64,000 bases of DNA from Squalus acanthias (taxonomy: Eukaryota). Below, piece after piece: positions 12,911 through 64,000 of the stretch; the first letter of the stretch is position 1; every line of letters begins with the position of its first letter. A program made the position numbers and the translations under genes. Location of the stretch: the NCBI GenBank assembly GCA_030390025.1, contig CM059431.1, forward strand, positions 141,176,001 to 141,240,000, read 5' to 3'. Below the pieces are notes generated by a model. The model was not told where the DNA came from. It did no database searches and was given only the letters and a program-made list of their open reading frames with translations.

Positions 12911-13910
12911 GTATATTGATGACCTAGACGAGGGAAGTAGATGTAATATCTCCAAGTTTGCAGACGACACAAAGCTGGGTGGGCGTGTGTGCTGTCAGGA
13001 GGATGCAGAGAAACTTCAGTATGATCTGTACAGGTTGGGTGTGAGGGCAGATGAATGGCACATGCAGTATAATGTGTATAAATGTGAGGTTATCCACTTT
13101 GGTGGCAAAAACAGGAAGTCAGATTATTATCTGAACGGCAATAGAAAGGGAGAAGGGGAAGTGCAACGAGACCAGGGTGTCCTTGTGCACCAGTCGCTGA
13201 AGGTAAGCATGCAGGTGCAGCAGGCGGTTAAGAATTCAAATGGTATTTATAACCTGGTATGTTGGCCTTCATAGCGAGAGGATTCAAGTACAGCAGCAAG
13301 GATGTCTTGCTGCAGTTGTACAGGGCCTTGGTGAGACCACACCTTGAGTATTGTGTGCAGTTTTGGTCGCCTTATCTGAGGAACGATGTTCTTGCCATGG
13401 AGGGAGTGCAGCGAAGATTCACCAGACTGATACCTGGGATGGCAGGAATGACTTATGAATAGAGATTGGGTCGATTAGGCTTATATTCGCTAGAGTTCAG
13501 AAGAATGAGAAGGATCTCATTGAAACTTATAAAATTCTAACAGGACTAGACAGATTAGATGCAGGAAGTATGTTCCCGATGGTGGGGGAGTACAGAACTA
13601 GGGGTCACAGTCTAAGGATAAGGGGTAAGCCATTTAGAACTGAGATGAGGAGGAATTTCTTCACCCAGAGAGTGGTGAACCTGTGAAATTCTCTACCACG
13701 GAAGGCAGTTGAGGCCAATTCATTAAATATATTCAAGAAGGAGTTAGATATATTTCTTAAGGCTAAATGGATCAAGGGATATGGGGAGAAAGCAGGGACA
13801 GGGTACTGAATTTGGATGATCAGCCATGATCTCATTAAATGTCGGAGCAGGCTCGAGGGGCCGAATGGCCTACGCCTGCTCCTATCTTCTATGTTTCTAT
13901 GTTTCTATGT
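12911..13910 (+). mobile_element. 5'-truncated CR1 (RT C-terminus plus 3' UTR)
   Basis: [26 protein letters not shown] and a (TTTCTATG)n tail. Confidence 0.95.
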
Positions 13911-14364
13911 ACTATTTATAGCCTACACCTACAGTAGTGATAACCATGCTCCTCCTGTACTATTTATATCCTACACCTACAGTGGAGATCACCATGCTCC
14001 TCCTGTACTATTTATACCCTACACCTACAGTAGAGATGACCGTGCTCCTCCTGTACTTGTGATAGCGTATATTTACACGAGAGGTGAGCGCACTCCTTCG
14101 GTACTAGAGGTTTGCTAAACATACAGAGGAGTAGAACATGCTCCTCCACCACTAGGGTTACTTCTACACTTAAACTAGCGGTGTCAGTGCTACTGCGGTA
14201 CGAGTATTACCCTACACTTACATTGTATGTGAGCATGCTACTCCGCTACTATTGGTATCCTACACTTATAATAGAACTGACCGTTCTCATCCAATATTAG
14301 TGGCAACCTATAATTACACTGGAGTTAAACATCCTCCTCTGGAACTAGAAGTACCAGTTGTGTC

Positions 14365-15639: not shown

Positions 15640-16650
15640 TTGGTTCACTTTGCCTTCTTTCTACTCATAACTAAAACCTTTCATCCCTGGTATGATGTTA
15701 GTGAATTTATTTTGACCGTTTCCATGGCCTTCACATCCTTCCCAATGTAGGGCGCCCAGAAATGGTCACAGCAGCTGAGGTTTTGCACTGCTGTGCAATT
15801 TTCCTACGTGTGTTTCCACGCACTGTGAGCTCAGAGACAGAACATTTCTCCTTAAATTTCAACCAACATTTTAACAGCAAATCTGCGGATCTGACTATGT
15901 CCTATTTTATTTGCATAGAAACGGAGGAACATGATTAGGTCATTCAGCAGCTCGAGTCTGTTCCAGCATTCAATCACATCATGGCTTATCTGTTTCTTAA
16001 ATCCACTTAGACGCCTTTATTCCATGTCCGCTGATATCCTTACCTAAATAAATGTATTTCTATTTAATTCTTCACAATTATATTGTCCAGCATCCACAGC
16101 CTTTTGAAGAGGCGAATTCCAGATTTCCAATAACCTTTGTGTGAAATAGTGCTTCCGGATCTCATTCCTAAGTGGCCCAGCTCTAATTTAAAGATGATGC
16201 CCACTTATTCTGCATTTCCCCATTAGAGGAAATAGTTTGTCTGTATCTACCCTATGGACTTCCTTTATGAATTTAAATATTTCGATATGATCAACCCTCA
16301 AGCGTTTAAACTTAAGGAAATACAAACCAGGTTTATGCAACCTGTCCTCATATTTAAATCTGCAAACACTGGTATAATTCTGGTGAATATGCACTGTACC
16401 TGCTATAAGGTTAATTTATATTTCCTGAATTCGGTTCCCAAATCTGAAAGTAATGCTCGAGATGGTGTCTGAGCAAGGTTATGTATAAAGGAAGCATCGA
16501 GTCCTCATTTTTGAATTCAAACGCTTTGAGAAAATGGGCAGCATTCCATTGGCTGTTTTGATCATTTTTTGTACCTGTGCACTAGCTTTTACTTATTTGT
16601 GTACACGGAGGCTCAAATCCATTTTCTCCTCCACATCAACGCCTCTGTCA
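15640..16650 (-). mobile_element. Old CR1 fragments
   Basis: ORF 16188-16394 (YEDRLHKPGLYFLKFKRLR); reverse 3' UTR at about 15925-15990. Confidence 0.7.
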
Positions 16651-16957
16651 CCATTAATATTACGTCAGTGAATATTTTGTCTGAGAACTGACCGGTCCTG
16701 TTAAATTTAAGAAAAGTTGCACCAGATTCCTGGTGTCAGAAGCAATGACTATTTTAAAACAGACTCCTGTGTGTGAAATGAAATGTGGGTCACAGTTCAT
16801 CACAGAAAAAATATTGATGTATCGACTCTTGGTTAGTCAGCATTTCTTTAATTCTGCAAAAGAAGGTCATTAGTTCATTAATGGTGATTAAAACAATTCT
16901 TTTTTCGCATTAAATATTGGAAGTCATTTAATTAGAAGCTGCTTTTTCACCTCTTAA

Positions 16958-17029
16958 TTCCCTGACCGGGAATCAAACGCAGGCCACGGCGGTGAAAGCA
17001 TCGAATCCTAACCACTAAACCACCAGGGA
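16958..17029 (-). tRNA. tRNA-Glu (TTC), probably a pseudogene
   Basis: Minus strand TCCCTGGTGGTTTAGTGGTTAGGATTCGATGCTTTCACCGCCGTGGCCTGCGTTTGATTCCCGGTCAGGGAA matches the vertebrate tRNA-Glu body. T-loop reads GTTTGA and the anticodon stem has mismatches. Confidence 0.85.
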
Positions 17030-17504
17030 AAACAGAGTCAAACCATTGCTATAATGTTAAATATAATTGAGAACTCTCCATGTTGGATACCGATTTAGTT
17101 TTGACTTGTTTTACATGTAAATGTATTTCATGACTCTGTTGCTTACAAATATATTTACATATATCTGTAAAATTTATTCATTTTTTGGAGGTCATCTGTC
17201 TTCATTCCAAATGTGTTATGTAATATTTATTTCTCAATGTGGTTCTTTTAAATTACACACAAATACATGTATACATAATACAGACACACACAAATACAAT
17301 GACAAATAAAACACAAATATATTTATAACTGGGACACAAATACACCCAAGTGCATTTAGAAGTATCACAGATACAATTATTTATATTTATATTTTTATGT
17401 AGTGTGTGTCATATTATAATAAAAAACTATGAATTGACACACATATAAAGCTTCGCACTCATCACATAAACACGAACTTTATAGATAAACATCACACCCA
17501 CACA

Positions 17505-21302: not shown

Positions 21303-24300
21303 CCAGGGGTTTGGGAACCTGTGCAGGGAGACAGAGGAAAGGGAAGCAAGGATAGAAGCAAAAGACAGAAAGGAGAAAAGCAAAAGTGGAAGGCAGAGAA
21401 ATCAAGGGGGTAAATCAAACAGGGCCACAGTAAATAATAATTCTAAAAGGACTAATAATGTTAAAAAACAAGCCTGAAGGCTTTGTGTCTTAATGCGAGG
21501 AGCATTCGTAATAAGGTGGATGAATTAGCTGCACAAAGGGATGTAAACGGATATGATATAATTGGGATTACGGAGACATGGCTCCAGGGTGACCAACGCT
21601 GGGAATTCAACATCCACGGGTATTCAATATTCAGGAAGGACAGGCAAAAAGGAAAAGGAGGTGGGGTAGCATTGCTGGTGAAAGAGGAGATAAACACAAT
21701 AGTAAGGAAGGATATTAGCTCTGATGATGTGGTATCTGTATGGGTAGAGCTGAGAAATACCAAGGGGCAGAAAACATTATGGGGTGTTGTATACAGACCG
21801 CCAAACAGTAATGCGGAGGTTGGGGACGGCATTAAACGGAAAATTAAAGACGCGTGCAATAAGGGCACAGAAGTCATCATTGGTGACTTCAATCTACATA
21901 TAGATTGGACTAACCAAGTTAGTAACAATACTGTGGAGGAGGAATTCCTAGAGTGTATACGGGATGGTTTCCTGGACCAATATGTCGAGGAACCAACTAG
22001 AGATCAGGACATCTTAGACTGAGTATTATGTAATGAGAAAGGATTAATTAGCAATCTTGTTGTGCGAGGCCCCTTGGGGAGGAGCGATCATAATATGATA
22101 GAATTCTTCATTAAGACGGAGAGTGAAGTAGTTGACTCAGAATCTACGGTCCTGGATTGAAATAAAGGGATCATTGATGATATAAGGCGCGAGTTCGCTA
22201 GGATGGATTGAGGAACGTTACTTAAAGGATTGACGGGGGATAGGCAATGGCAAACATTTAAAGATCGCATGGCTTAACTACAGAATTTGTTCATCCCTGT
22301 TTGGCATAAAATTTAAACAAAATAGGTGACTCAACCGTGGCTAACAAGGGAAATTAGGGATAGCATAAGATCCAAGGAGAGGACATATAAATTGGCCAGA
22401 AAAAGCAGCACACCTGAGGATTGGGAGCAGTTTAGGATTCATCAAATGAGGTCAAAGTGATTAATTAAGAGGGGGAAAATAGAATATGAGAGTAAGCGTT
22501 CAGGGAACATAAAAAATGACTGTAAAAGCTTCTATAGATATGTGAAGAGAAAAAGATTGGTGAAGTCAAGCGTAGGTCCCTTGCAGTCAGAATCAAGCGA
22601 ATTTATAATGGGTAACAAAGAAATAGCAGAACAATTAAATTCATACTTTGGTTCTGTCTTCACAAAGGACGATACAAATAACCTCCCTGAGATGTCGGGG
22701 AACATAGGTTCTAATGAGAGGGAGAAACTGAATGAAATCAGTATTTGTAGGGAAATGGTGATAGGGAAATTGACGGGATTGAAGGCCGATAAATCCCCAG
22801 GGCCTGATAATCTACATCCTAGGGTACTTAATGACGTGGCCCTAGAAATTGTAGATGCATTGCTGGTCATCTTCCAAAATTCTATAGACTCTGGAACAGT
22901 CTCCATGAATTAGAGGGTAGCTAATGTAACCCCACTATTTAAAAAAGGTGGTAGAGAGAAAACGCGGAATTATAGACCGGTAAACCTAACATCGGTAGTG
23001 GGAAAAATGCTAGAGTCCATTATAAAAGATGTAATAGCAGAGCACTTGGAAAACAGTGACAGGATCGGACAAAGTCAACATGGATTTACAAAAGGTAAAT
23101 CATGCTTGAATAATCTACTGGAATTTTTTGAGGATGTAACTGGTAGAATAGATAAGGGAGAACCAGTGGAATTGGTGTATTTGGACTTTCAGAAGGCTTT
23201 CGATAAGGTCTCGCATAAGAGATTGGCGTGCAAAGTTAAAGCACATGGGATTGGGGGTAAAGTACTGACTTGGATAGCGAACTGGTTGGCAGACAGGAAG
23301 CAAAGAGTTGGAATAAACGGGTCTTTTTCCGAGTGACAGGCAGTGACTAGTGGGGTACCGCAGGAATCGGTGCTAGGAACCCAGTTATTCACAACATATA
23401 TTAATGATCTAGACGAGGAAACTAAATGTAAAATCTCCAAGTTTGCAGACGACACAAAGCTGGGGTGGGCGTGTGTGCTGTGAGGAGGATGCAGAGAAAC
23501 TCCAGTAAGATTTGGACAGGTAGGGTGATTGGGCAGATGCATGGCAGATGCAGAATAAAGTGGAAAAATGCGAGGTTATCCACTTTGGTGTCAAAAACAG
23601 GAAGGCAGATTATTATCTGAACGGCAATAGATTGGGAAAAGGGGAAGGGCAACGAGACCTGGGTGTCCTTGTGCACCAGTCTCTGAAGATAAGCATGCAG
23701 GTGCAGCAGGCGGTTAAGAAGGCAAATGGTATGTTGGCCTTCATAGCGAGAGGATTCGAGTACAGGAGCAAGGATGTCTTGCTGCAGTTGTACAGGGCCT
23801 CGGTGAGAACACACCTTGAGTATTGTGTGCAGTTTTGGTCACCTTATCTGAGGAACGATGTTCTTGCCACGGAGGAAGTGCAGCGAAGATTCACCAGACT
23901 GATACCTGGGATGGCAGGAATGACGTATGAAGAGAGATTGGGACGATTGGGCATGTATTCGCTACAGTTTAGAAGAATGAGAGGGGATCTCATTGAAACT
24001 TATAAAATTCTAACAGGACTAGACAGACTCGATGCTGGAAGGATGTTCCCGATGGCGGGTGAGTCCAGAACCAGGGGTCATAGTGTAAGGATAAGGGGTA
24101 AGCCATTTAGAACTGAGATGAGGAGGAATTTCTTCACCTAGTGAGTGGTGAACCTGTGGAATTCTCTACCACAGAAGGTAGTTGAGGCCAGTTCATTAAA
24201 TATATTCATGAAGGAGTTAGATATATTTCTTAAGTTTAAAGGGATCAAGGGATATGGGGAGAAAGCAGGGACAGGGTACTGAATTTGGATGATCACCCAT

Positions 24301-24374
24301 GATCTCATTAAATGGCGAACAGGATCGAGGGGCAGAATGGCCTACTCCTGCTCCTATCTTCTATGTTTCTATGT
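21303..24374 (+). mobile_element. CR1 LINE with complete but stop-interrupted ORF2 (APE plus RT) and 3' UTR
   Basis: CLNARSIRNK, GDFN, KSPGPD, YLDFQKAFDKV, FADDTK and the ttctatgtttctatgt tail. Confidence 0.95.
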
Positions 24375-24670
24375 AGGGGCAACAATAGTACAGGAGGATC
24401 CCGATCACCACTAGTGTACGTATAAGGGCACCACCAGTACAGGAGGATCACGGTCACTTCTAGTGTAAGTATAGGGCTGCCACTAGTACAGTAGGAGCCG
24501 TGTCACCTCTAGTGTAAGTGTCGGGGCACCACTGGTACCGGAGTAGCCCATTCACCTCTCGTTTATGTGTAGGGTTACCACTAGTACAGGAGGAGCCCGG
24601 TCACCTCTAGTCTAAGTGTAGGGGTAGCTCTAGTTCCAGAGGAGCACGTACCGAAGGAGTCCGGTCAGAT
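24375..24670. repeat. Inverted, degenerate copy of the 48-bp minisatellite
   Basis: Units such as tagtacaggaggagcccggtcacctctagtctaagtgtagggg are the reverse complement of the 12.4-14.3 kb unit. Confidence 0.8.
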
Positions 24671-29154: not shown

Positions 29155-29325
29155 TGTGTCTTATCTGGTCATTTATCTTATTGTTGTTTTTGGGATTTGC
29201 TGTGAGAAAATTGTCTTCTGCATTTCCTCACATTACTGCAGTGACTACACTTTAAAAGTACTTTGTTAGCTGTGAGGCGCGTTAGGGCGTCCTGAGGTTT
29301 TGAAAGGCGCTATATAAATGCAAGG
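29155..29325 (+). mobile_element. 3' part of a Deu-SINE
   Basis: Matches the tails at about 1250-1400 and 56960-57130 (...gaaaggcgctatataaatgcaag). Confidence 0.7.
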
Positions 29326-39039: not shown

Positions 39040-40640
39040 TTTTTTTTGTTTATGGGATGTGGGCGTCGCTGGTAAGGCCAGCATTTATTGCCCACCCCTA
39101 ATTGACTTGAAAGGTGGTGGTGAGCCGCCTTCTTGAACCGCTGCAGTCCGTGTTGTGAAGGTACTCCCACAGTGCTGTTAGGTATGGATTTCCAGCATTT
39201 TGACCCAGCGACGATGAAGGATCGGCGATATACTTCCAAGTCAGGATGGTGTGTGACTTGGAGGGAAACTTGGAGGTGGTGGTCTTCCCATGGGACTGCT
39301 GCCCTTGTCCTTCTAGGTGGAAGAGGTCGCGGGTTTGGGAGTTGCTGCTGAAGAAACCTTGGCGAGTTGCTGAAGTGCATCTTGTAGGTGGTGCACACTG
39401 CAGCCTCGGTACGCTGGTGGTGGAGGGAGTGAATGTTTAAGTTGGTGGTTGACATGCCAATCAAACGGGCTGATTTGTCCTGGATGGTGTCGAGCTTCTT
39501 GAGATTTGTTGGAGCTGCACTCATCCAGGCGAGTGTAGAGTATTCAATCACACTTCTTACATGTGCCTTGTAGTTTGTGAAAAGTTTTTAGGGAGTAAGG
39601 AGGTGAGACACACGCCGCCAAATACCTAGCCTCTGACCTGCTTTTGTTGCCACAGTATCGATGTGGCTGGTCCAGTTAAGTTTCTGGTCAATGGTGACCC
39701 CCCAGGATGTTGATGGTGGGGGATTCGGCAATGGTAATGCCGTTGAATGAATGGGGGGTGGTTAGACTCTCGCTTGTTGGAGATAGTCATTGCCTGGCAC
39801 TTCCGTGGCGCGAATGTTACATGCCACTGATCTGCCCAAGCCTGATCGTCGTCCAGGTCTTTTTGCATGCGGGCATGGATTGCTTCATTATCTGAAGACT
39901 TGTGAATGGCGCTGAACACTGTGCAGTCATCAGTGAACATCCCCATTTCTGACCTTAAGTTGGAGGGAAGATCATTGATGAAGCAGCTGAAGATGGTTGT
40001 GCCTAGGACACTGCCCTGAGGAACTCCTGCAGCGATGTCCTGGTGCTGTGATGATTGACCTTCAACCACCACAACCATCTTCCTTTGTGCTAGGGATGAC
40101 TCCAACCAGTGGAGCGTTTCCCCCCCGATTCCCATTGATTTAAGTTTTACTAGAGCTCCTTGATCACACTCGGTCAAATGCTGCATGGATGTCAAGGGCA
40201 GTCACTCTCACCTCACCTCTGGAATTCAGCTCCTTTCTCCATGTTTGGACCAATGCTGTAATGAGGTCGGGAGCCGAGTGGACTTGACGGAACCCAAACT
40301 GGGCATCAGTGAGCAGGTTATTGGTGATTAAGTGCCTCTTGATAGCTGATGATTGAGAGTAGACTGATGGGGCGATAAGTGGCTGGGTTGGATTTGTTCT
40401 GCTTTTTGTGGACAGGACATACCTGGGCAGTTTTCTACATTGTTGGATGGATGCCAGTGTTGAAGCTTTACTGGAACAGCTTGACTAGAGGCGCGGCTAG
40501 TTCTGGAGCACACGTATTCAGCAGGACAGCAGGGATGTTGTCGGGGCCCATAGCTTTTGCTGTATCCAGTGCGCTCAGCCGTGTCTTGATATCACATGGA
40601 ATGAATCGAATTGGCTGAAGACGGGCTTCTGTAATGGTAG
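39040..40640 (-). mobile_element. 5'-truncated LINE of a second CR1/L2-group family
   Basis: GVPQGSVLG..FSCFINDLP...FTDD and EYSTLAWMSAAPTNLKKLDTIQ; distinct from the dominant CR1. Confidence 0.85.
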
Positions 40641-44404: not shown

Positions 44405-44905
44405 AAAGGACTGGTTGGGCCGAATGCTCTGTGTCTGTGCTCTGTGTCTGATCCTGGAGTGCAGCACAAACCCGGGTATGGACTGGTTGGACCGAATGCT
44501 CTGTGTCTGTGCTCTGTGTGATCCTGGAGTGCAGCATAAACGCGGGCATACAGAGCAGGAAAGGCTTATGTTCCTCCGCTGACGAGTGCACCCCCCCCCC
44601 CCCCCACACACACACACACACGCACACACACACACACAGCAGGAAAGGCCCAGGCTCCATCCCCGGATAGTGCCACACCACCTCCCACACACACACACAA
44701 AGCAGGAAAGGCTCAGACTCTATCCCCGGACTACTGCCCCCAAACACACACAGACACAGAGCAGGATAGGCCCAGACGCCTTTCCCAGACTCCATTCCCA
44801 GACTAGAGCCCCTCCCCGCCCCCACCACACACACACCAGATCAGAAAAGGCACAGGCTCCATTCCCTGAGAAAAGCCCCCACCCATACACACGCACAGAG
44901 CAGGA
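44405..44905. repeat. Two-copy CR1-3'UTR-like duplication followed by a degenerate (CA)n-containing tandem repeat of about 60 bp
   Basis: ggactggttgg.ccgaatgctctgtgtctgtgctctgtgt occurs twice; cacacagagcaggaaaggc recurs. Confidence 0.7.
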
Positions 44906-45482
44906 GTTTACAGTGATAGGGAGGGTTATAGAGCTGGAGGAGGTTACAGAGTACGGGAGGGTTGTAAGCGTTGGAGGAGGTTTCAGAGATAGTGAGTGTT
45001 TTGGGGCTGGAGGTGGTTAGAGAGTAAGGGAGGGCTGCAGGGCTGGAGGTTTTTATTGAGATAGGGAGGGTTGTAGGGCTGGAAGAAGTTACAGAGATAT
45101 GGAGGATTATTGGGCTGGAGGAGTTACAGAGATAGAGAGGGTTGTAGGGCTGGAAGAGGTTACAGAGATAGGGAGGGTTGCATGTATGGAGGAGGTTACA
45201 GAGATAGGGAGGTTTGTAGGGCTCGAGGAGGATACAGAGATAGGGAAGGTTGTAGTGCGGGAGGAGGTTAAAGAGATAGAGAGGATTGTAGGGGCTGGAG
45301 GAGGTGACAGTAATATAGACGGTTGACTGGCTGGAGGAGGTTACAGAGATAAGGAGGTTGTAGGACTGGAGGAGGCTACAGAGATATGCAGGGCTGGAAG
45401 AGGTTACAGAGATAAGGAGGGTTGTAGGGGCTGGAGCAGGTTACTGAGCTGCGGTTGGTTGTGCTGCCTGAGGTGGTTACAG
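44905..45482. repeat. 36-bp minisatellite (GGGAGGGTTGTAGGGCTGGAGGAGGTTACAGAGATA)
   Basis: About 16 units; 12-aa periodic ORF 45099-45326. Confidence 0.9.
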
Positions 45483-45499: not shown

Positions 45500-45893
45500 T
45501 CCCTCCACCACCAGCGTACGGTGGATGCAGTGTGTACCATCTACAAGATGCACTGCAGCAACTCACCAAGGATTCTCCGGCAGCACCTCCCAAACCCGCG
45601 ACCTCTTCCACCTAGAAGGATAAGGGCCGCAGGCGCATGGGAACACCACCACCTCCAAGTTCCCCTCCAAGTCACACAACATCCTGACTTAGAAATATAT
45701 CACCGATCCTTCATCATCGCTGGGTCAAAATCCAGGAACTCCCTCCCTAACCGCGCTGTGGGAGTACATTCACCACACGGACTGCAGCGGTTCAAGAAGG
45801 CGGCTCACCACCACCTTCTCGAGGGCAATTAGGGATGAGCAATAAATTCTGTCCTTGACAGGGACGCCCACATACCATGAACGAATAAAAAAA
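45500..45893 (+). mobile_element. 3' fragment of the same LINE family as 39040-40640
   Basis: AVCTIYKMHCSNSPR...FKKAAHHHLL; ends gaataaaaaaa. Confidence 0.85.
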
Positions 45894-48800
45894 TGGCTGG
45901 AGGGAAGCCTCAGACAGCCTCAGTGTCCCAGGTTGTGGAGGAGCAACGCTAGCCAGGGTACTGCTCCAGATCACAACCCAGTGTAGGTGTGTGGGGCACA
46001 GAAGAGGTCAGGAACCGGGGGGGGGGGGGGTTGATGTAATGATCCATCATTGCAGGACCTATTGGCCTTGTTGGGGTCAGCACAGAAACACCAGAATGAT
46101 ACCGTGGCTAAAAGGGTTAAATTAGGAGGGCTGGTTGCACAGACTAGGCTTGTATTCCCTCGACTCACAGTAAGTAGGTTGTGGGTTCCCCACCCACTCC
46201 TGACACTTGAGCACAAAATCTAGGCTGAATCTCCCAGTGCAGTACTGAGGGAGTGATGCACGGTCGGTAGGGCAGTACTGAGGGAGTGATGCACTGTTAG
46301 AGGGGAAGTACTGAGGGAGCGCTGCACTGTCGGAGAGGCAGCACTGAGGGAGTGATGCACGGTCGGTGGGGCAGTACTGAGGGAGCGCCACACTGTCGAG
46401 GGGCAGTATAGAGGGAGTGCCGCACTAACAGAGCGACAGTACTGAGGGAACGCTGCACTGTCGGAGGGGGAGTACTGAAGGAGCACCGCATTGTCAGAGG
46501 GGCAGTACTGACGGAACGCTGCTCTGTCATCGCGGCAGTAACGAGGGAGCGATGCATTGTTAGAGGGGCAGTACTGAGGGAGCGCCACACTGTCAGAGCG
46601 GCAGTACTGAGGGACTGCTGCACTGTCGGAGGGGCAGTACTGAGTGAGCGCCGCACGTTCAGAGGGACTATACTGTGGGAGCGCTGCACTGTCAGAGCGG
46701 CAGTACCGAGGGAGCACCGCACTGGCGGAGGGACATTACTGAGCGAGGTCTGCACTGTCGAAGGGACAGCACTGAGGGAGATCTGGACATACGGAATGGC
46801 AGTACTGAGGGAGCGCGGCATTGTCGGAGGTGCAGTACTGAGGAAGCGCTGCACTAATGAAAGAGATCTGCACTGCAGGAGGGACAGAACTGAGTGCGTG
46901 CTGCATTGTCGGAGGGTCAATACAGAGGGAGCGCTGCACTGCGTCAAAGGCAACACTGAGGGAGCGCTGCACTGACAGTGGGACAGAACTGAGGGAACGC
47001 TGCACTGTCAGAGGGGCAGTACTGAGGGAGCACTGCACTGACAGAGGGACAGAACTGAGGGAACGCTGCACTGTCAGAGGGGCAGTACTGAGGGAGCACT
47101 GCACTGAGAGAAGGGCAGTACTGAGGGAGTACTGAACTGAGAGAAGGGCAGTACTGAGGGAGCTCTGCACTGTCGGAGGGAAAGTACTGAGGGAGCACTG
47201 AACTGTCGGAGGGGTAGTACCGAGGGAGCGCTGCACTGTTGGAGGAGCAGTGCTGTGGGAATGCTGCACTGTCGGAGTGGGAGTACTGAGGGCTCGCTGC
47301 ACTGTCGAAGGGTCATATTTGAGGGAGCGCTGTCAGATGGAGGGGCAGTACAGAGGGAGCGCCGCACTGACAGAGGGTCAGTACTAAGGATCACTGCATT
47401 GTCGGAGCGGCAGTAACGAGGGATCGCTGCAATGTTAGAGGGGCAGTACTAAGGGAGCGATCCACTGTCGGGGGGGCAGTACTGAGGGAGCGCAGCACTC
47501 TCGGAGGGACAGTACTGAGGGAGCGCCGCACTGTCAGCGGGACAGTATTGAGTGTTTTCTTCACTGTCAGAGGGGCAGTACTGAGGGAGCGCAGCACTCT
47601 CGGAGGGACAGTACTGAGTTTTGTTCTGCACTGTCGGAGGAGCAGTACTGAGGGAGCGCTGCAATGTCGGAGGGGCAGTACTGAGGGATGTCTGCACTGT
47701 CGGGAGGGAGGTCAGTACTGAGGCAGCGGGGCATTGTCCGAGGCAGCAGTACTGAAGAAGTGCGGCATTGTCGGAGGGGCAGTACTGAGAGAGATCTCCA
47801 CTGCTTGAGGGACATATCTGAGGGAGCGCTGCATTGTCGGAGAGACAATACTGAGGGAGGTCTTACTCTCGGAAGGGCAGTGCTGAGGGACTGCTGCACT
47901 GGCCAAAGGACAATACTGAGGGAGCGATGCACTGTCGGAGGATCAATGCAGAGCGAGAGCTGCACTGAATCAAGTGCAGTAGTGAGGGAGCGCTGCACAG
48001 TCAGAGGGGCAGTACTGAGGGAGCGCTGCACTGTCGGAGGGACACTACTGAGGGAGCACATTACTTTCGGAGGGCCAGTTCTGAGGGTGCGCTGCACTGT
48101 CGGAGGCGCAGTACTGACGGAGCGTGCCATTGTCGGAGGTGCAACACTGAGGTATTGCAGCACTATCGGAGGGGCAGTTCTGCGGGAAAGCTGCATTTTC
48201 GGAGGAACAGTACTGAAGGAGCTCTGCACTCTCGGAAGGGCAGTGCTGAGGGACTGCTGCACTGTCCAAGGGACACTACTGAGGGAGCGCTGCACTGTCA
48301 GAGGATCATTATAGAACTAGCGCTGCACTGACTCAAGGGGAGTACTGATGGTGCGCTGCACTGTCAGAGGGGCAGAACTGAGGGAGCGATGCAATGATGG
48401 AAGGGCAGTACTGAGGGAGCGCTGCACCATCGGAAAGACAGTACAGAGGGAGTACTGCACTGACGGAAGGGCAGTACTGAGGGAGCGCTTCACTGTCGGA
48501 GAGGCAGTACTAAGGGAGCACTGCACTGTCGGAGGGGCAGTACTGAGGCAGCGCTGCACTGTCTGAGGGTCAGTACTGAGGGAGCGCTGCACTGTCGGAG
48601 GGACAGTACTGAGGGTGCGCTGCACTGTCGGAGGGGCAGTACTGGGGGAGCGCCCGCAATTTCGGAGGCCCGTACTGAGTGTGCGCTGCACTCTCGGAGG
48701 GGCAGTGCTGAGGGATTGCTGCACTGTCCAAGGGACACTACTGAGGGAGCGCTGCACTGTCAGAGGATCATTATAGAGCTAGCGCTGCACTGATGGAAGG

Positions 48801-50798
48801 GCAGTACTGAGGGAGCGCTGCAACATCGGAAAGGCAGTACAGAGGGAGTACTGCACTGACGGAAGGGCAGTACTGAGGGAGCGCTGCACTGTCGGAGAGG
48901 CAGTACTGAGGGAGCGCTGCACTGTCGGAGGGGCAGTACTGAGGGAGCGCTGCACTGTCTGAGGGTCAGTACTGAGGGAGCGCTGCACTGTCGGAGGGAC
49001 AGTACTGAGGGGGCGCTGCACTGTCGGAGGGGCAGTACTGAGGGAGCGCTGCACTGTCGGAGGGACAGTACTGAGGGTGCGCTGCACTGTCTGAGGGGCA
49101 GTACTGAGGGAGCGCTGCACTGTCGGAGGGACAGTACTGAGGGTGCGCTGCACTGTCTGAGGGTCAGTACTGAGGGAGCGCCCGCAATTTCGGAGGCCAG
49201 TACTGAGTGTGCGCTGCACTGTTGGAGGGGCAGTACTGAGGGAGTGCTGCACTGTCGGAAGGGCAGTACTGAGGGAGTGCTGCACTGTCGAAGGGACAGT
49301 ACTGAGGTTGCGCTGCACTGTCTGAGGGACAGTACTGAGGGAGCGCCGCACTTTCGGAGGCCAGTACTGAGTGTGCGCTGCACTGTTGGAGGGGCAGTAC
49401 TGAGGGAGTGCTGCACTGTCGGAAGGGCAGTACTGAGGGAGTGCTGCACTGTCGGAAGGGCAGTACTGAGGGAGCGCTGCACTGTCGGAGAGGCAGTACT
49501 GAGGGAGCGCTGCACTGTCGGAGGGGCAGTACTGAGGGAGCGCTGCACTGTCTGAGGGTCAGTACTGAGGGAGCGCTGCACTGTCGGAGGGACAGTACTG
49601 AGGGGGCGCTGCACTGTCGGAGGGGCAGTACTGAGGGAGCGCTGCACTGTCGGAGGGACAGTACTGAGGGTGCGCTGCACTGTCTGAGGGTCAGTACTGA
49701 GGGAGCGCCCGCAATTTCGGAGGCCAGTACTGAGTGTGCGCTGCACTGTTGGAGGGGCAGTACTGAGGGAGTGCTGCACTGTCGGAAGGGCAGTACTGAG
49801 GGAGTGCTGCACTGTCGAAGGGACAGTACTGAGGTTGCGCTGCACTGTCGGAGGGGCAGTCCTGAGGAAGTCCTGCACTGTCGGAGGGGCCGTACTGAGG
49901 GAGTGCTGCACTGTCGGATGGGCAGTACTGAGAGATGTCTGCACTGTCGTGTGGGCAGTACTGAGGGAGCGCGGCATTGTTGGAGGTGCAGTAGAGCAAT
50001 TGAGGCACTGTCGGAGGGTCAGTACTGAGGGAGATCTGCACTGATGGAGGGACAGAACTGAGGGAGCGCTGCATTGTCGGAGGGACAATACTGAGCGTGG
50101 TCTGCAATCTCGGAGGGGCGGTGCTGAGGGACTGCTGCACTGTCCAAGGGACAATACTGAGGGAGTGCTGCACTGTCAGAGGATCAATGCAGAGCGAGCG
50201 CTGCACTAACTCAAGGGCAGTACTGAGGGTGCGCTGCACTGTCGGAGGTGCAGTACTGAGGGAGCGCTGCACTGTCGGAGGGCAGTACTGAGGGACGTCT
50301 GCAATGTCGGAGGAGCAGTACTGAGGGAGCGCGGCATTGTAGGACATGCAGTACTGAGGAAGTGCGGCACTGTCGGAGGGGCAGTACTGAGGGAGATCTG
50401 CACTGCTGGAGGGACAGAACTGAGGGAGCGCTGCATTATCGGAGGAACAGTACTGAGGGAGGTCTGCTCTCTCAGAAGGGCCGTGCTGAGGGACTGCTGC
50501 ACTGTCCAAGTGTCAGTACTGAGGGAGCGCTGCACTGTCAGAGGGGCAGTACTGAGGGAGCGCTGCACTGATGGAACGGCAGTACTGAGGGAGCGCTGCA
50601 CTGTCAGAGGGACAGTACTGAGGGAGTGCTGCACTGACGGTAGGGCAGTACGGAGGGAGCGCTGCTCTGTCGGAGAGGCAGTACTGAGGGAGCACTGCAC
50701 TGTCGGAGGGGCAGTACTGAGGGAGTGCTGCATTGTTGGAGCGGCAATACTGAGGGTGCGCTGCACTGTCGGAGTGGCAGTACTGAGGGAGTACTGAG

Positions 50799-51780
50799 TG
50801 CGCTCACTCGAAGGTCGAACTCCAAACCTTCGTCAACACCTTCACCGAAGCATATGTGAGCATGGGCCATACACTAAATATCCGTAAGACAAAGGTCCTC
50901 TACCAACCTGACCCCGCCACACAGTAGGGCCCCTGATTATCAAAATCCACGACGAGGCCTTGGACAACATGGACCACATTCCATACATCGGGAGCCTGCT
51001 GTCAAAAAGGGCAGATGTCAATGACGAAGTCCAACACAGCCTTCAGTGTGCCAGTGCAGCCCTCGGTCGACGGAGGAAGAGAGTGTTTGAAAACCAGGTC
51101 CTCAAACCCGGCACTAAGATAATGGTCTACAGAGCAGTAGTGATACCCGCCCTGCTGTATGCCTCAGAGACATGCACCATATACATCAGGCACCTCAATT
51201 CATTGGAGAGCTACCACCAACGCTGCATCCGCAAGATCCTGCAAATCCATTAGCAGGATATGCACTCCAACGACAGTGTTCTCGCTCAGGCCAAAATCCC
51301 CTGTATCGAAGCTTTGAACACGATCGATCAGCTCCGATGGACGGGCCTCATCGTCCGCTTGCCCGATAGGAGACTCCCAAAACAAGCGCTCTACTCGGAG
51401 CTCCGACACGGCAAGAGAGGCCCAGGTGGGCAGAGGAAATGCTTCAAGGACACCCTCAAAGCCTCCTTGAAAAAGAGCAACATCCCCACTGACACCTGGG
51501 AATCCCTGGCCCAAGATCGCACAATGTGGAGAAGAAGAATCCGTGAAGGCACCGAACACCTCAAGTCTCTTTGACGGGAGCAAGCGGAAGCCAAGCGCAA
51601 ACAGCACAAGGAGCACCCGTCAACCCAAGCACCCCACCCATCCGCCCCTTCAACCACCGTCTGCTCCACCTGTGACAGAGACTGTAGGTCCCGCATTGAA
51701 CTCATCAGTCACCTGAGCACTCATTTTTAATGTGGAAGCAAGTCATCCTCGGTTCCGAGGGACTGCCTAAGAAGAAGAAG
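50799..51780 (+). mobile_element. 5'-truncated RTE LINE
   Basis: KIMVYRAVVIPALLYASET, YHQRCIRKILQIH, RLPKQALYSEL..GKR..GGQRK.FKDTLKASLK and an (AAG)n tail. Confidence 0.9.
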
Positions 51781-53430
51781 CTGATTGCGGGAGCGCTGCA
51801 CTGATGGAAGGACAGTACTCAGGAAGGGCTGCACTGTCGGACGTGCAGTACTAAGGCAGCGCGGTACTGTCGGAGGGGTAGTACCGAAGGAGCACACCAC
51901 TGACGGAGTGTCAGTAATGAGGGAGGTCTGCACTGTCGGAGGGACAGTACTGAGGGAGTGCTGCACTGTCGGAGGTCCAGTACAGAGGGAGCGCTGCATT
52001 GTTGGAAGGGCAGAACTGAGGGAGCGCTGCGCTGTTGGAGGAGCAATGCTGAGGGAATGCTGCACTGTCGAAGCGTCAGTCCAGAGGGAGCGCTGCACTG
52101 TTGGAGGTGCAGTGCTGAGGGAATGCTGCACTATTGGAGGGCAGTACTGAAGGCAAGCTGCACTGTCGAAGGGTCAGTATAGAGGGAGCGCTGTCTTTTG
52201 GAGGGGCAGGACTGAGGGAACACCGCACTGTCAGAGCGGCAGTACTGAGGGAGTGCTGCACTGTCGGAGGGGCAGTATAAAGGCAGCGCCGTACTGTTGG
52301 AGGAGCAGCACTGAGGGAGCGCTGGACTGTCGGAGGGGCAGTACCGAGGGAGCGCAGCACTGTTGGAGGGGCAGTACTGAGGTGGGTCTGCACTGTTGAA
52401 GGACCAGTACTGAGGGGGCGCTGAACTGTCGGAGTGTCAGTAATGAGGGAGCGCTGCACTTTCAGAGGGGCATTACTGAGGATGTGCTGCATTGTTGGAA
52501 GGGCAGTACTGAGGGAGCGCTGCGCTGTTGGAGGAGCAGTGCTGAGGGAGCGCTGCACTGTTGGAAGAGCAGTGCAGAGGGAGCGCTGCACTTTCGGAGG
52601 GGCAGTAATGAGGGCGCACTGCACTGTGGAAGGGTCATTATTGCGGGACCGCTGTCTGTTGGAGGGGCAGTATTGAGGGAGCGCCGCACTGTCAGGGCGG
52701 CAGTACTGAGGGACTGCTGCACTGTCGGAGGGGCAGTACTAAGGCAGCGCCGCTCTTTCGGATGGGCAGTACTGAGGGAGAGCTGCACAGTCTGAGGGGC
52801 AGTACTGAGTGAGCGCCGCATTCTTGGAGGTGCAGTTCTGAGGAAGCGCTGCACTATCGGAGGGGCAGTACTGAGGGAGATCTGAACTGTCGGAGGGACA
52901 GAACTGAGAGAGCGCTGCATTGTCGGAGATACTGTACTGCGGGAGATCTGCACTGTCGGAGGGGCTGTACTGAGGGAGCACTGCACTGTCGGAGTGTCAA
53001 TACAGATGGAGCGCTGCATTGATTCAAGGGCACTACTGAGGAACCGCTTCACTGTCAGAGTGGCAGTACTGAGGCAGCGCTGCACTGACGGAAGAGCAGT
53101 AGTGAGGGAGCGCTGCACTCTCAGAGGGGCAGTGCTGAGGGAGCGCTGCACTGATGGAAGGGCAGTACTGAGGGAGCTCAGCACTGTCAGAGGGACAGTA
53201 CTGAGGGAGCGCTGCACTGACGGAAGGACAGTACTGAGGAAGCGCCTCACTGTCGGAGGGACAGTACTGAGTGACTGCTGCACTGTCGTAGTGCCAGTAC
53301 AGAGGGAGCGCTGAACTGTCGAAGGGGCAGTACTGATGGAGCGCTGCACTGTCAGAGGGGCAGTAATGAATGAGTGCTACATTGTGGGAGGGGCAGTACT
53401 AAGGCTGCGCTGCACTTTTGGAGGAGCATT

Positions 53431-55103
53431 GAAACATAGAAACATAAAAACAAAGAAGATAGGAGCAGGAGTAGGCCATTCGGCCCCTCGAGCCAGCTCC
53501 GCCCTTCGATGAGATCATGGCTGATCATCCAAACTCAGTACCCTGTCCCTGCCTGCTCCGCATATCCCTTGATACCTTTAGCCTTAAAAATATATCTATC
53601 TCCTTCTTGAATAATTGGCCTCAACTGCCTTCTGTGGTAGAGAATTCCACAGGTTCACCACTCTCTGGGTGAAGAAATTCCTCCTCATCTCAGTCCTAAA
53701 TAGCTTACCCCTTATCTTTAGACTGTGACCTGTTGTTCTGGACTCATCCGCCATCGGGAAAGTTCTTCCTGCATTCAGTCTGTCGAGCACTGTTAAAATT
53801 TTATAAGTTTCAATGAGATCCCCACTCATTCTTCTAAACTCCAGCGAGTATAAGCTCAATCGTCCCAATCTCTCCTCGTACGTCATTTCTGCCATCCCAG
53901 GTATCAGTCTGGTGAATCTTCGGTGTACACCCTCCATGGCAAGAACATCGTTCCTCAGATAAGGAGAAGAAAACTGCACACAATACTCAAGGTGTGGTCT
54001 CACCACTGCTCTGTACAGTTGCAGCAAGACATCCTTGTTCCTGTTCTCAAACCCTTTCGCAACGAAGGTCAACATACCATTTGTCATCTTAACCGCCTGC
54101 TGTACCTGCATGCTATCCTTCAGCGACTGGTGTACAAGAACATCCAGGTCTCGTTGCACTCCCCTTCTCCCAATCTATTGCTGTTCAGCTAATAATCTGC
54201 CTTTCTGTTTTTGTCACCAAAGTGGATAACCTCGCATTTAACCACATTATACTGCATCTGCTATACTTCTGCCCAATCAACAAACCTGTCCAAATCAAAC
54301 TGGAGTTTCTCTGCATCCTCCTCACAGCACACACGCCCTCCCAGCTTTGTACCATCTGCAAACTTGGCGGTATTACATCTAGTTCCCTCGTCTAGATCAT
54401 TAATATATATTGTGAATAGCTGGGGTCCTCGGACCGATCCCTGCGGAACACCACTAGTCACTGCCTGCCACACGGAAAAAGACCCATTTATTCCAACTCG
54501 TTGCTTCCTGTCTGCAAACCAGTTCTCTATCCAAGTCAGTACCTTGCCCCCAATCCCATGTGCCTTAACTTTACACGCTAATCTCTTATGCGGGACCTTA
54601 TCGAAAGCCTTCTGAAAGTCCAAATACATCACATCCACTGGTTCTCCCTTATCTATTCTATCAGTTGCATCCTCAAAAAAATCCAGTAGATTAGTCAAGC
54701 ACTATTTACCTTTTGTAAATGCATGTTGACTTTGTCCGATCCTGTCACTGTTTTCCAAGTGCTCTGCTGTTACATCTTTTATAAAGGACTGCAGCATTTT
54801 CCCCACAACCGATGTCAGGCTTATCGATCTATAATTCACCGATTTTTCTTTACCACCTTTTTTGAACAGTGGGGTAAAATTAAGTACCCTCCAATCTATG
54901 GGAACTGTTCCAGAGTCTATAGAATTTTGGAAGATGACCAGCAATGCATCGACTATTTCTCGGGCCACTTCCTTAAGTACCCTAGGATGTAGATTATCAG
55001 GCCCTGGGGATTTATCGGCCTTTAATGCCGTCAATTTCCCTAACACCATTTCCCTACAAGTACTGATTTCATTCAGTTCCTCCCTCTCATTAGAACCTAT
55101 ATT
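53431..55103 (-). mobile_element. 5'-truncated CR1 inserted in the 33-bp array
   Basis: KSPGPD, YLDFQKAFDKVPH and VRPHLEYC; reverse tail gaaacatagaaacata. Confidence 0.95.
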
Positions 55104-57689
55104 CTGAGGGAATGGTGCACGTTTGGAGGGGCAGTACTGAGGGAGCGCTGCTCTGTCGAAGGGGCAGTACTGAGGGAGCGCTGCACTGTCGGAGGGGCAG
55201 TGCTGAGGGAGTGCTACAATGTTGGAGGGGCAGTACTGTGGGAGCGCTGCAATGTCGGAGGGGCAGTACTGAGGGAGCGCAGCACTGTCGGAGGTGCATT
55301 ACTGAGGGAGTGCTGTATTATTGAAAGGGCAGTGCTGAGGGAGTGCTGCACTGTTGGAGAGTCAGTATTGTGGGAGCGCTGCACTGTTGGAGTTGCAGTG
55401 CAGAGGTAATACTGCACTATCGGATGGACAGTACAGAGGGCGCGCTGCACTTTCAAAGGATCAGTATTGAGGGAGTGCTGTCTTTTGAAGGGGCAGTATT
55501 GAGGGAGCGCCGCACTGTCACAGCGGTAGTACTGAGGGAGTGCTGCACTGTCGCAGGGGCAGTACTAAGGCAGCGCCGCACTGTCGGAGGGGCAGCACTG
55601 AAGGAGAGCTGCACTGTCGGAGGGGCAGTACCTAGGGATCACAGCACTGTCGGAGGGGCAGTACTAAGGGTGGTCTGCACTGTCGGAGGGACAGCACTGA
55701 GTGAGGTCTGCACTATCGGAGGGACAGTATAGAGGGAGGTCTGCAATGTTGGAGGGGCAGTACTAAGTGAGCGCCACCTTGTCGGAGGTGCAGTACTGAG
55801 GAAGCGCTGCACTGTCGTAGGGGCAGTACTAAGGGAGATCTGCACTGTCGGAGGGACAGAACTGAGGGAGCGCTGCATCGTCAGACGGACTGCACTGCGG
55901 TAGGTCTGCACTGTCGTAGGAGCAGTGTTGAGGTACCGCTGCATTGTCAAACGGACAATACTGAGGGAGTGCTGCACTGTCGGAGGGGCTGTACTGATGG
56001 AGCGCTGCAATGTCGGTGTGTCAATACAGATGGAGCGCTGCACTGATTCAAGGGCAGTACTGAGAGCGCTGCACTGTCAGAGTGGCAGTACTGAGGGAGC
56101 GTTGCACAGATGGAAGGGCAGTACTGAGGGAGCGCTGCACTGTCAAAGGGGCAATACTGAGGGAGCGCTGCACTGACGGAAGGGCAGTAATGCGGAAGCG
56201 CTGCACTGTCGGAGGGACAGAAATAAGGGACTGCTTACTTTCGGAAGGCCAGTACTAAGGGAGCGCTGAACTGTTGGAGGGTCAGAAAAGAGGGAGTGCT
56301 GCACTGTCTGAGGGGCAGTACTGAGGGAGTGCTACATTTTTGTAGGGGCAGTATTGAGGGAGCGCTGCACTGTTGGAGGAGCGGTGCTGAGGGAATGATG
56401 CACATTCGGTGGGGCAGTACTGGTGCAGCGCTGTCTGTTGGAGGGGCAGTACTGAGGGAGCGCTGCACTATCAGCGGGGTCTGTACTGAGCGAGCGCTGC
56501 ACTGTCGGAGGTGCAGTACTGTGGGAGCGCTGCACTGTCGGCGGGGTCAGTACTGAGCGATGGCTGCACTGACAGAGGGGAAGTACTGAGGGAGTGCTGC
56601 ACTGTCGGAGGCGGAGTACTGAGCGAGGGCTGCACTGTTGGAGGGGCAGTACTGAGTGAAGGCTGCACTGTCGGAGGCGGAGTACTGAGGGAGCGCTGCT
56701 CTGTAGGAGGGGCTGTACTGAGGGTGCGCTGCACTGTCAGAGGGGCAGTACTGAGGGTGTCTGCACTGTCGGAGTGGCAGTACTGGGGGCGTCAGCACTG
56801 TCGGAAATGCCGTCTTTTGGATGAGATGTTAAACCGACGCCCCGGCTGCTCTCTTAGGTCAACGTAACTGTTCTCGCGGCATAATTTTGAAGAAGAGGAG
56901 GGGAGTTCTCTCAGGTGTCCTGGCCAATATTTTTCCCTCAACCAACATAACAAAAGCAGGTGATCTGGTCATTATCGCATTGCTGTTTGTGGGAGCTTGC
57001 TGTGCGCAGATTGGCTGTCGCATTTCCTACATTTACAACAGTGACTCCACTTCAAAGAAATACTTCATTGGCTGTAAAGCGGTTTGGGAAGTCCGGTGGT
57101 CTTGAAAGGCACTGCAGAAATGCAATTATTTCTTTAAGAACATAAGAAATAGGAGCAGGACAATGCCATTGACCCATCGAGCCTGCTCTGCCATTAAATA
57201 AGATCATGGCTGATCTTCTACCTCATCTCCACTTTCCTGCATTATCCCGATACCCCTTGATTCCCTTAATATTCAAAAATCTATCGATCTCTGTCTTAAA
57301 TATGCTCAACGGCTGAGCATCCACAGCCCGGTGGGGTACAGAATTTCAAAGGTTCACCGCCCTTTGAGTGAACAAATGTTACTTATCTCAGTCCTAAATG
57401 GCCGACCCCTTAATCTGAGACTGTGACCCCTCGTTCTAAACTCCCCAGCCATAGGACACATCCTCCCTTCATCTACCCTGTCAAGCCCTATAAGAATTAT
57501 ACATGTTTCAATGAGATCACCTCTTATTCTTCTAAACTCTAGAGAATATAGGCCTAGTCTGCTCAATCTCTCCTCATAGGACAATCACCCATCCCAGGAA
57601 CCAGTCTGGTGAACCTTTGTTGCACTCCCTTTATGGCAAGTATATCGTTCCTTAGGTAAGGAGACAAAAACCTGTACAAAATATTCCAG

Positions 57690-58390
57690 GCGGGGTTGGG
57701 GGGGGGGCGGACTTGCGTCGCACCCCCTTCGGGCCGCTAACTTCGCCGGGTGATTCTTTTAGTGCCCCGAAAATGTTAGAATGCCTGTGCCCGAAATTGA
57801 ATGGTAGAGCCCCAAGCAGGAGGCGGGGCGCTACTGGAAGCCCTCCCCTCCATCTTCGGGCGCTCCTATTTAATATCACGGCCTTACGTGCAGCAGTGCC
57901 AAGTGCGTCAGCACTTAGTGCCGCGTTACTGCAGGCCTCCATCCCTTGATTAAAGGAGAGGGACGTGGTGCAAAGCACACCGGGGCTCTGCTGGACCCCC
58001 AGCGAGCGGGGTGCCGGAAAAGAGCCCGGCACTCAAGAGGATGGGGCCAGAGGGGCAGGTGCCGACTGGCGGCACCAAAACAAATGGCCGCCCGGCACCT
58101 GCCCTTTAATTTGCTCCGCGCTGGCCGCACCAACGCCCCACTGACCTTGTCCGACCTAGCATAAGTGGTAGGGCAGGGGGCGCGAGCCAAGTTTGTGGCC
58201 GGGGTGCAGCACACGGTGAAGAAATCAACGTCTTAGGCGCAGTGCCGTGGAGTGCTACCGGCTGCCGGCGCCAGTAACCTCCCACTGAATTTCGCGAGAG
58301 GCGTTAGTGGCGCCCACCCCGGAAGCTCGTTGCTTTGCACCCCATCAGCGCCCTGTAATGGGAGGCGCAAAGCAGCAGAATGTTTCCCCC
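57690..58390. mobile_element. GC/CpG-rich non-autonomous DNA-transposon-like insertion
   Basis: Splits the CR1 sequence ccaggtgtggtctc with an approximately 3-bp duplication. G-run and C-run termini. Confidence 0.55.
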
Positions 58391-58510
58391 TAGGTGTGGT
58401 CTCACGACGGTCCTATATAATTGCAGGAAGACGACTTTACTCCTATACTCAAATCCAGTCCATATGTAGATTCAAGTCCCCCATGATTACTGTATTACCC
58501 TTGTTACATG

Positions 58511-62809: not shown

Positions 62810-64000
62810 CCTCGAGCCTGTTACATAGGAACAGGAGGAGGCCATTCAGTCCCTCGAGCCTGTTACACAGGAACAGGATGAGGCCATTCAGCCCCTCGAG
62901 CCTGTTAAACAGGAACAGGTGGAGGCCATTCAGCCCCTCGAGCCTGTTACACAGGAACAGGATGAGTTAATTCAGCCCCTCGATCCTGTTACACAGAAAC
63001 ACGTGGAGGCCATTCAGCCCCTCGAGCCTATTACACAGGAACAGGAGGAGTCCATTTAGCCCCTCGAGCCTGTTACACAGGAACAGGTGTAGTCCATTCA
63101 GCCCCTCGAGCCTGTTACACAGGAACAGGAGGAGTCCATTCAGCCCCCTCGAGCCTGTTACACAGGAACAGGAAGAGTCCATTCAGCCTATCGAGCCTGT
63201 TATACAGGAACAGGAGGAGTCCATTCACCCATCGAGCCTGTTATACAGGAACAGGAGGAGTCCATTCAGCCCATCGAGCCTGTTACACAGGAAAAGGAGG
63301 AGTCCATTCAGCCCCTCGATCCTGTTACACAGGAACAGGTGGGGGGCATTCAGCCCCTCGAGCGTGTTACACAGAAACAGGAGGAGGTCATTCAGCCCCT
63401 CGAGCCTGTTACACAGGAACAGGAGGAGGCCATTCAGCCCCTCGAGCCTGTTACACAGGAACAGGAGGAGGCCATTCAGCCCCTCGAGCCTGTTACAAAG
63501 GAAAAGGAAGAATCCCATTCAGCCCCTCGAGCCTGTAACACAGGAACAGGAGGAGGTCATTCAGCCCCTCGAGCCTGTTACACAGGAACAGGAGGAGACC
63601 ATTCAGCCCCTCGAGCCTGTTACACAGGAACAGAAGGAGGCCATTCAGCCCCTCGAGCCTCTTAAACAGGAACAAGAGGGGGCCATTCAGCCCCTCGAGC
63701 CTGTTAAACAGGAACAGGAGGAGGCCATTCAGCCTCTCGAGCCTGTTACACAGGAACAGGAGGAGTCCATTCATCACCTCCAGCCTGTTACACAGGAACA
63801 GGAGGAGGCCATTCAGCCCCTTTAGGGAGTTACGCAGGAACAGGAGAAGGCCATTTAGCCCCTCGAGCCTGTTACACAAGAATAGGAGGAGGCCATTCAG
63901 CCCTTCTAGCCCGTGACACAGGTGCAGGAGGAGACCATCCAGCGCCTCGAGTCTGTTACACAGGAACAGGAGGAGGCCATTCAGCCCCTCGAGCCTGTTA
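62810..64000. repeat. 42-bp minisatellite (AGGAACAGGAGGAGGCCATTCAGCCCCTCGAGCCTGTTACAC), about 28 units, runs off the window
   Basis: Direct tandem periodicity; 14-aa periodic ORFs. Confidence 0.97.

Follow-up and report, generated by a model that had tools for sequence, protein, structure and literature searches.

A SINE-shaped element of Squalus acanthias with about 240 tandem copies of a 33-bp unit

The closest described relatives of the locus reported here are the sSat1-3 families of squamates, satellites derived from short interspersed elements (SINEs) that reach 320, 950 and more than 1200 units according to passages of Vassetzky, Kosushkin and Ryskov (2023, PMC10702118). The same passages describe many loci with a subtelomeric preference and a minor variant that keeps both SINE termini, and they call the restriction of such satellites to squamates uncertain. 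Minisatellites have also been derived from Alu (Jurka and Gentles 2006, as cited; Ahmed and Liang 2012, PMC3389668), and mouse B1 has given rise to a family of variable number tandem repeats (VNTRs; Bois et al. 1998, as cited in PMC6947457). For LTR12, passages of this literature (PMC3389668, PMC6947457) place the repeats already in the source element, from which they are spread by transposition. Here we describe a long 33-bp minisatellite that lies inside one SINE-shaped element of Squalus acanthias. It occupies part of a 64,000-nucleotide stretch (assembly GCA_030390025.1, contig CM059431.1, positions 141,176,001 to 141,240,000 of the forward strand), called the window below, and all coordinates count from the first letter of the window. 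SINE-derived satellites are described in passages of PMC10702118 by a tandem unit that is part of a SINE and shorter than it, at least four middle monomers, and a terminal unit that reaches a SINE terminus. The unit described here matches a SINE segment (1072-1104) at 30 of 33 positions, near-full units number 238, and the terminal units reach a complete 3' end and a 5' end about 27 bases short.

Tandem Repeats Finder (TRF) returned four rows of 33-bp arrays (46239-46855, 46868-50791, 51789-53428 and 55104-56805), and a wrap-around decomposition resolved 243 array pieces, 238 of them near-full 33-bp units. Array DNA amounts to about 7,914 bp, equal to the roughly 240 units claimed in an earlier note on this DNA, within a span of 10.6 kb. 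That note described a 10.5-kb minisatellite, which is right for the span, although about 2.65 kb of it consists of inserted long interspersed elements (LINEs). On average a unit shares 86.8% identity with the consensus and 77.1% with another unit, and there are 214 distinct sequences among the 238. The earlier note also equated the unit with SINE positions 1071-1103; this proved too strong, given that no unit (0/238) is identical to SINE 1072-1104 and the best matches it at 31/33. The window contains no N.

Both ends of the array continue into SINE sequence. On the plus strand, a 5'-truncated SINE head (46159-46238) enters the first unit in register, and the SINE body with its 3' tail (56809-57136) begins exactly past the last unit. 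Our reference for these comparisons is a decayed full-length copy of the same family (966-1410, plus strand), whose single unit (1072-1104, plus strand) lies between the motifs TGCAGT (1071) and TGCCGT (1104). The head (46159-46228) aligns to SINE 993-1062 with a score of 60 (maximum 31 in 1000 shuffles, and 33 among the other 897 window tiles), and is identical to SINE 993-1071 at 55/79 positions (70%). The tail aligns to SINE 1105-1410 with a score of 250 (maximum 38 in 300 shuffles) and 228/306 identical positions (75%). Head, first unit and tail joined together are co-linear with 966-1410 (322/440 aligned columns). The earlier note had asked for this alignment of the joined flanks, and its outcome supports that note's picture of a head leading in register into the array and a body resuming after it. 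One correction concerns the head, which lacks about 27 first bases, including an A-box-like motif, and adjoins a CR1-like LINE fragment (46061-46160, plus strand). A further claim, that the ancestral state survives in the same window, did not hold: the 966-1410 copy, which differs from the array-bearing copy by a 14-bp gap and about 27% mismatch, is a decayed family member, neither the parent nor the ancestral state of the array.

The SINE may belong to SacSINE1 and have a Deu domain, a plausible assignment suggested by its motifs. Box-like motifs can be recognized by eye in the reference copy at 974-984 (A-box-like) and at about 1018-1030; ARAGORN called no tRNA in the SINE head, and Rfam gave no credible match there. 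No L2 partner LINE for the 3' tail turned up in the window, where no test was aimed at tail sharing. Around the array-bearing SINE no target-site duplication was found, the flanks tested having only unrelated 6-mers in common. The 3' end of an older CR1-type LINE (57135-57696, minus strand) adjoins the SINE tail, so any target duplication would be hidden. Head, array and tail likely stem from a single SINE insertion. The SINE family is represented a third time at 29163-29323, by a 3' part only that is 76% identical to the array-bearing tail and sits within another element. ARAGORN called a tRNA-Glu(TTC) at 16957-17030 on the minus strand.

The array is divided by two LINEs into three segments, all on the plus strand. 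Segment 1 (46239-50802, about 138 units) is followed by the 5'-truncated end of an RTE-type LINE with an AAG-repeat tail (50803-51780, plus strand), for which neither of two fragments gave a Pfam match. Segment 2 (51781-53431, about 50 units) stops at unit position 6, and segment 3 (55104-56808, about 52 units) restarts at unit position 7. Exactly between these two positions lies a 5'-truncated CR1-type LINE (53432-55103, minus strand), inserted with no base gained or lost and no target duplication. It encodes a reverse transcriptase domain (Pfam RVT_1, E 2e-14), the one such match among five LINE fragments scanned, and over 1,676 bp it shares 88.5% identity with a copy at 22700-24374. The clade names RTE and CR1 are presumed here from tails and motifs.

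The CR1-type LINE entered an already existing array. The unit that it splits pairs with the intact unit 229 within a block duplication of 29 unit pairs, and since the split unit has an intact sister in the block duplicate, the insertion must be later than that duplication. The RTE-type LINE likely also entered an existing array: it has a probable 9-bp target duplication (50794-50802 versus 51781-51789, 8/9 identical), and the register across it is less clean. Three of the four window copies of the young CR1-type subfamily lie in or against minisatellites. Besides the copy in the 33-bp array, to which the others are 86-88% identical, one (12397-14106) sits inside a 48-bp array (12919-13907), and the copy at 22700-24374 directly adjoins a 49-bp array (24377-24645).

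The same block duplication unites the segments. Units 160-191 and 196-230 form 29 pairs that are identical at 818/952 positions (85.9%, against a background of 77.1%), with a score of 189 versus a null maximum of 65 in 100 shuffles, and the pairing crosses the CR1-type insertion. Because of this 29-unit duplication across the insertion and the intact sister of the interrupted unit, this is one array and not several. Segment 1 is linked to the others as well, to segment 2 through units 110-120 with 167-176 (score 43.8 versus null 33.0), and to segment 3 through units 112-122 with 209-220 (64.1 versus 39.2) and units 44-54 with 209-220 (57.1 versus 38.6). Register and block duplications thus agree with the earlier note in seeing a single array within one SINE that expanded in place and was later hit by two LINEs.

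Growth proceeded largely by blocks of 5-29 units and not unit by unit, a departure from the slippage that the earlier note had proposed. Within segment 1, units 44-69 are duplicated as units 112-135 (23 pairs, 88%). Nested block copies of differing age can be distinguished at 86% (29 pairs), 88% (23 pairs), 94-97% (5-8 units) and 99% identity (8 units); the last occur at 48834-49855 (plus strand), the youngest part of the array, where 8-unit blocks recur at a lag of 16-18 units. No fixed higher-order period was found, identity being flat at 0.77-0.79 over lags 1-60. Such blocks could have arisen through unequal exchange or gene conversion. CpG transitions affect 160/950 positions, compared with 347/6,874 for transitions elsewhere (p 2e-33), which suggests long residence as methylated DNA.

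How the array began is best approached through the base at the unit junctions. As the earlier note stated, TGCAGT and TGCCGT lie exactly 33 bp apart in the SINE (5/6 match), and it proposed that slippage between these near-repeats seeded the array. A duplication between them predicts a T at each unit junction. The junction base (unit position 33) is G in 199 of the 238 units, from the first unit onward, and T in 16/238, which is about the G>T background at other G positions (1-25). At the corresponding position, T is present in the 966 copy and at both ends of the array-bearing SINE, and the single-unit state (head, T, one unit) is the loose-end consensus in 626 contigs of sequencing run X8. 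The inner junctions therefore do not reproduce the T of the flanking repeat that is expected under the Haber-Louis model. Near-repeats as good as 5/6 occur at 58 of 8,090 position-spacing pairs (spacing 25-44 bp) in the SINE at 966-1410; they are common enough that TGCAGT and TGCCGT do not explain why this particular 33-mer expanded. Birth by microhomology-seeded slippage in the array-bearing copy is doubtful.

Translations of the repeat in public protein sets bear on the same base. Five records from other datasets that are spurious translations of the repeat (P0021, P0052 and P0109, from 140 HMMER hits, and P0144 and P0145, from the 3 hits of a second search) have V, D or G at 16/16 junction residues and no C. 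As codons for V, D and G start with G, all 16 junctions imply a G. This count omits P0043, P0044, P0069 and P0119, whose frame leaves position 33 silent, and P0048 and P0077, which look unrelated by eye. The G junctions in these records offer modest evidence for a seed shared among loci, as judged from translated sequence. The earlier note held that any copy of this SINE could in principle seed such an array; the G common to these unrelated records points rather towards one common seed.

Other data indicate how widely the SINE and its repeat may be distributed. When contigs of four organisms, drawn from 4 of 24 sequencing runs, were aligned to 56745-57230, each run recruited 34,208-91,068 contigs, and by these numbers the SINE is abundant. 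In the runs of all four organisms, contig depth across the unit-unit junction climbs near 56761 and drops again before 56794; in run X1 it is 19k at 56759, 926k at 56762-78, 597k at 56779-95 and 0.8k at 56794. This peak would fit pieces of about 29 bp that cross the unit-unit junction, a hint only, since depth does not measure copy number. A degenerate run with the 11-residue period is found in two predicted proteins of the zebra shark (P0069 and P0119; E 9e-6 and 3e-4). Eight of the 140 HMMER hits have a stretch of at least 7/11 residues identical to the unit translation, four have a tandem pair, and the remaining hits are unrelated periodic proteins. Word-based protein searches with the array frames twice found none among 8,000 candidates. 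Scans for the unit pattern gave 0 and 0 matches in viral contigs, 0 in prokaryote genomes, 0 in phages, and 0 and then 1 in metagenome contigs. We attribute the single match (locus L001) to chance, as it extends over 25 bases once, and the 601 bases inspected contain neither a second unit nor a SINE-like context.

The repeat consensus is open in 5/6 frames. We considered a coding role for the array and rejected it, as frames shift and stop throughout. Public gene models nevertheless hold translations of the repeat (P0069, P0119, P0143 and P0021), two uncharacterised zebra shark loci among them, and one public record fuses such a translation to an ordinary-looking protein start. The repeat has thus already produced spurious proteins in public sets, which is an annotation issue.

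On balance we lean towards an array that grew from a short seed shared by a dispersed family, and not from fresh slippage in this copy. In such a history, a source SINE would have undergone, once or a few times during shark evolution, a duplication of the 33 bp where its head meets its body, and the inner junction of the duplicated unit would have changed from T to G. SINEs with few units could still have been copied, and one such copy may have landed at this locus. Continued copying is conceivable because RNA polymerase III would meet no terminating T-run in the consensus unit (the T-runs in the array are scattered single-unit changes) and because the 3' end is intact. The copy would then have lengthened in place through unequal exchange or gene conversion, in the 5-29-unit blocks that are seen in the array. 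Into the existing array the CR1-type LINE, and likely the RTE-type LINE, inserted; units decayed by CpG transitions, and the centre acquired very recent duplications. A wider proposal, to which we give some credence but less than even weight, is that one SINE variant with the G-junction duplication founded an old dispersed minisatellite family of sharks, whose retrotransposed seeds each grew independently across shark lineages. SVA-type retroposons carry a VNTR. If the wider proposal is true, an SVA-like seeding route would operate in a tRNA-type SINE, each seed having grown between fixed, datable SINE ends, and the family would constitute a natural replicate experiment on the birth, growth and interruption of minisatellites.

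Several observations weigh against this history. Protein records give the DNA only by inference and were found with G-bearing queries, and P0052, P0144 and P0145 look like one variant, leaving fewer than five independent cases. Unit position 16 differs between loci, being C here (156/238) and encoding T-type residues in P0021, P0109, P0043, P0044 and P0069. The T16 of the SINE is found in 4 of the 6 first units and in 49 of the 232 others (p 0.02), a distribution that fits a local birth as well. No SINE with two or three units plus both ends was seen. Contig depth is not a measure of copy number, none of the aligned pieces in the four runs spans the locus, and neither an orthologue nor a long read turned up. 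Moreover, without a target duplication a single insertion is unproven, head and tail may derive from two copies, and the 5' truncation of the SINE could be a later deletion. Similarity of units 0-43 to the rest is weak, marginal for segment 2 (44.1 versus a null maximum of 38.8) and not significant for segment 3 (58.7 versus 67.8).

If the array was instead born locally, slippage or unequal crossover between TGCAGT and TGCCGT would have occurred in this copy after its insertion. The T>G change would have arisen in the first duplicate and would recur elsewhere because only units with a G at the junction expand. The exact 33-bp spacing of the near-repeats suits this scenario, and the route is published for Alu minisatellites as the Haber-Louis model in passages of PMC6947457 and PMC3389668. 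The retention of T16 in the first units and the variation of position 16 among loci point the same way. The junction G also creates a GGGCAG motif, which resembles the core of unstable GC-rich minisatellites. Yet the T that this scenario expects is at background level and absent at the first junctions, the junctions in the other protein records are uniformly G, and 58 near-repeats in the same SINE match equally well, with no array at any of them in either of the other two SINE pieces of the window. We therefore regard a local birth as unlikely, with enough in its favour to be taken seriously.

Import is a different matter: a single-unit SINE may have gained G-junction units by ectopic gene conversion, or a crossover may have linked the head of one array locus with the tail of a second. 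An outer T at both ends with inner G is what import would leave behind, and the missing target duplication, the unrelated flanks and the weak link of the first 43 units to the remaining array are in keeping with it. Against this, 33 bp is generally short for ectopic homology, head and tail differ from the 966 copy to a similar degree (70% versus 75% identity), and later LINE insertions account for the flanks; such an import appears improbable. It is far harder to believe that an assembly error accounts for the array or for a large part of it. No sequencing run among 24, all of them contigs, contained half of the left-flank words (best 0.25), and mis-assembly is conceivable for the blocks of 99% identity at 48834-49855, but an artefact would not be expected to yield 214 distinct sequences among 238 units at 77% mean pairwise identity, decayed CpG sites, old duplications of blocks in a nested pattern and LINEs inserted with biological junctions in a window free of N. 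Growth from a shared seed remains the reading that we favour.

The surroundings of the array are themselves repetitive. The CR1-like fragment that ends where the SINE head begins aligns to the reverse strand of 16315-16415, and no continuation of it was found beyond the tail of the SINE. Upstream of the head, a 36-bp minisatellite (44902-45482) is followed by a 390-bp element (45500-45890), which lies some 270 bp from the head and is 88% identical to 39040-39428 on the opposite strand. On the other side, past the tail, the minus-strand LINE is interrupted by a GC-rich element of about 700 bp (57697-58391). The window is rich in other minisatellites. A 42-bp array (62810-64000) continues for 28 copies to the window end, and its unit matches the opposite-strand 3' end of the CR1-type LINE at 32/34 positions (score 56 versus a shuffle maximum of 24), making it a second retroposon-derived array in the window. 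The other 33-bp array (2131-2580, 13.7 copies) proved unrelated to the SINE-derived unit (score 17 versus a shuffle maximum of 33).

Minisatellites usually lose the traces of their origin. Here the source element is preserved at both ends, the order of growth can be read from block duplications, and one step of it is dated by a LINE insertion. Should the family exist genome-wide, one could ask directly whether such arrays arose once or repeatedly and what makes one 33-mer expand. A search of the open literature, with subscription papers, Repbase and Dfam outside it, gave no report of this repeat in sharks. The repeat is absent from passages of PMC5499810, PMC4824008, PMC10468316, PMC11481361 and the zebra shark preprint (10.1101/2022.10.17.512540), and the main text of PMC5499810 reports no internal array and does not use the word 'tandem'.

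Compared with known systems, the SINE is like SacSINE1 and other SINEs with a Deu domain in its length of about 445-460 bp (whale shark copies reach 463 bp) and its abundance, going by passages of PMC5499810 and PMC4824008. The unit, at SINE positions of about 106-138, overlaps the start of the Deu-matching span (124-258) given in passages of the same papers. A possible tRNA-like head, recognized by eye, would be a further likeness to SacSINE1. As in Alu and B1 minisatellites, the array involves a short internal SINE segment with short flanking near-direct repeats and in-place expansion after insertion in a hot-spot region of the element, and it differs in the SINE concerned and in looking much longer than the 15-17-unit examples (passages of PMC3389668 and PMC6947457). 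It also departs from them in its junction base, which is not the one that the flanking repeats predict. Like the squamate satellites in passages of PMC10702118, the array takes its unit from the head-body region of a tRNA-derived SINE, comprises hundreds of units with multi-unit alternation, and has terminal units that extend to the SINE ends. Unlike sSat1-3 in those passages, it belongs to another SINE family and lineage, its unit is 33 bp rather than about 67-290 nt, and its pairwise identity is 77%, whereas the 320-unit cobra locus reaches 94%. It is set further apart from the squamate arrays by its two dated LINE insertions and by having kept both termini at about 240 units. Under the shared-seed model preferred here, it would resemble SVA in that a GC-rich tandem repeat is spread inside a non-autonomous retroposon and then changes its length at each locus. 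Unlike SVA, the carrier is a tRNA-type SINE with one unit as its normal state, and its multi-unit copies would have to be mobilised. The array shows no new mechanism and implies no function. By analogy, it works like a SINE-derived satellite that stands outside the sSat1-3 families, an unusually legible example that extends this already published kind of repeat to cartilaginous fishes.

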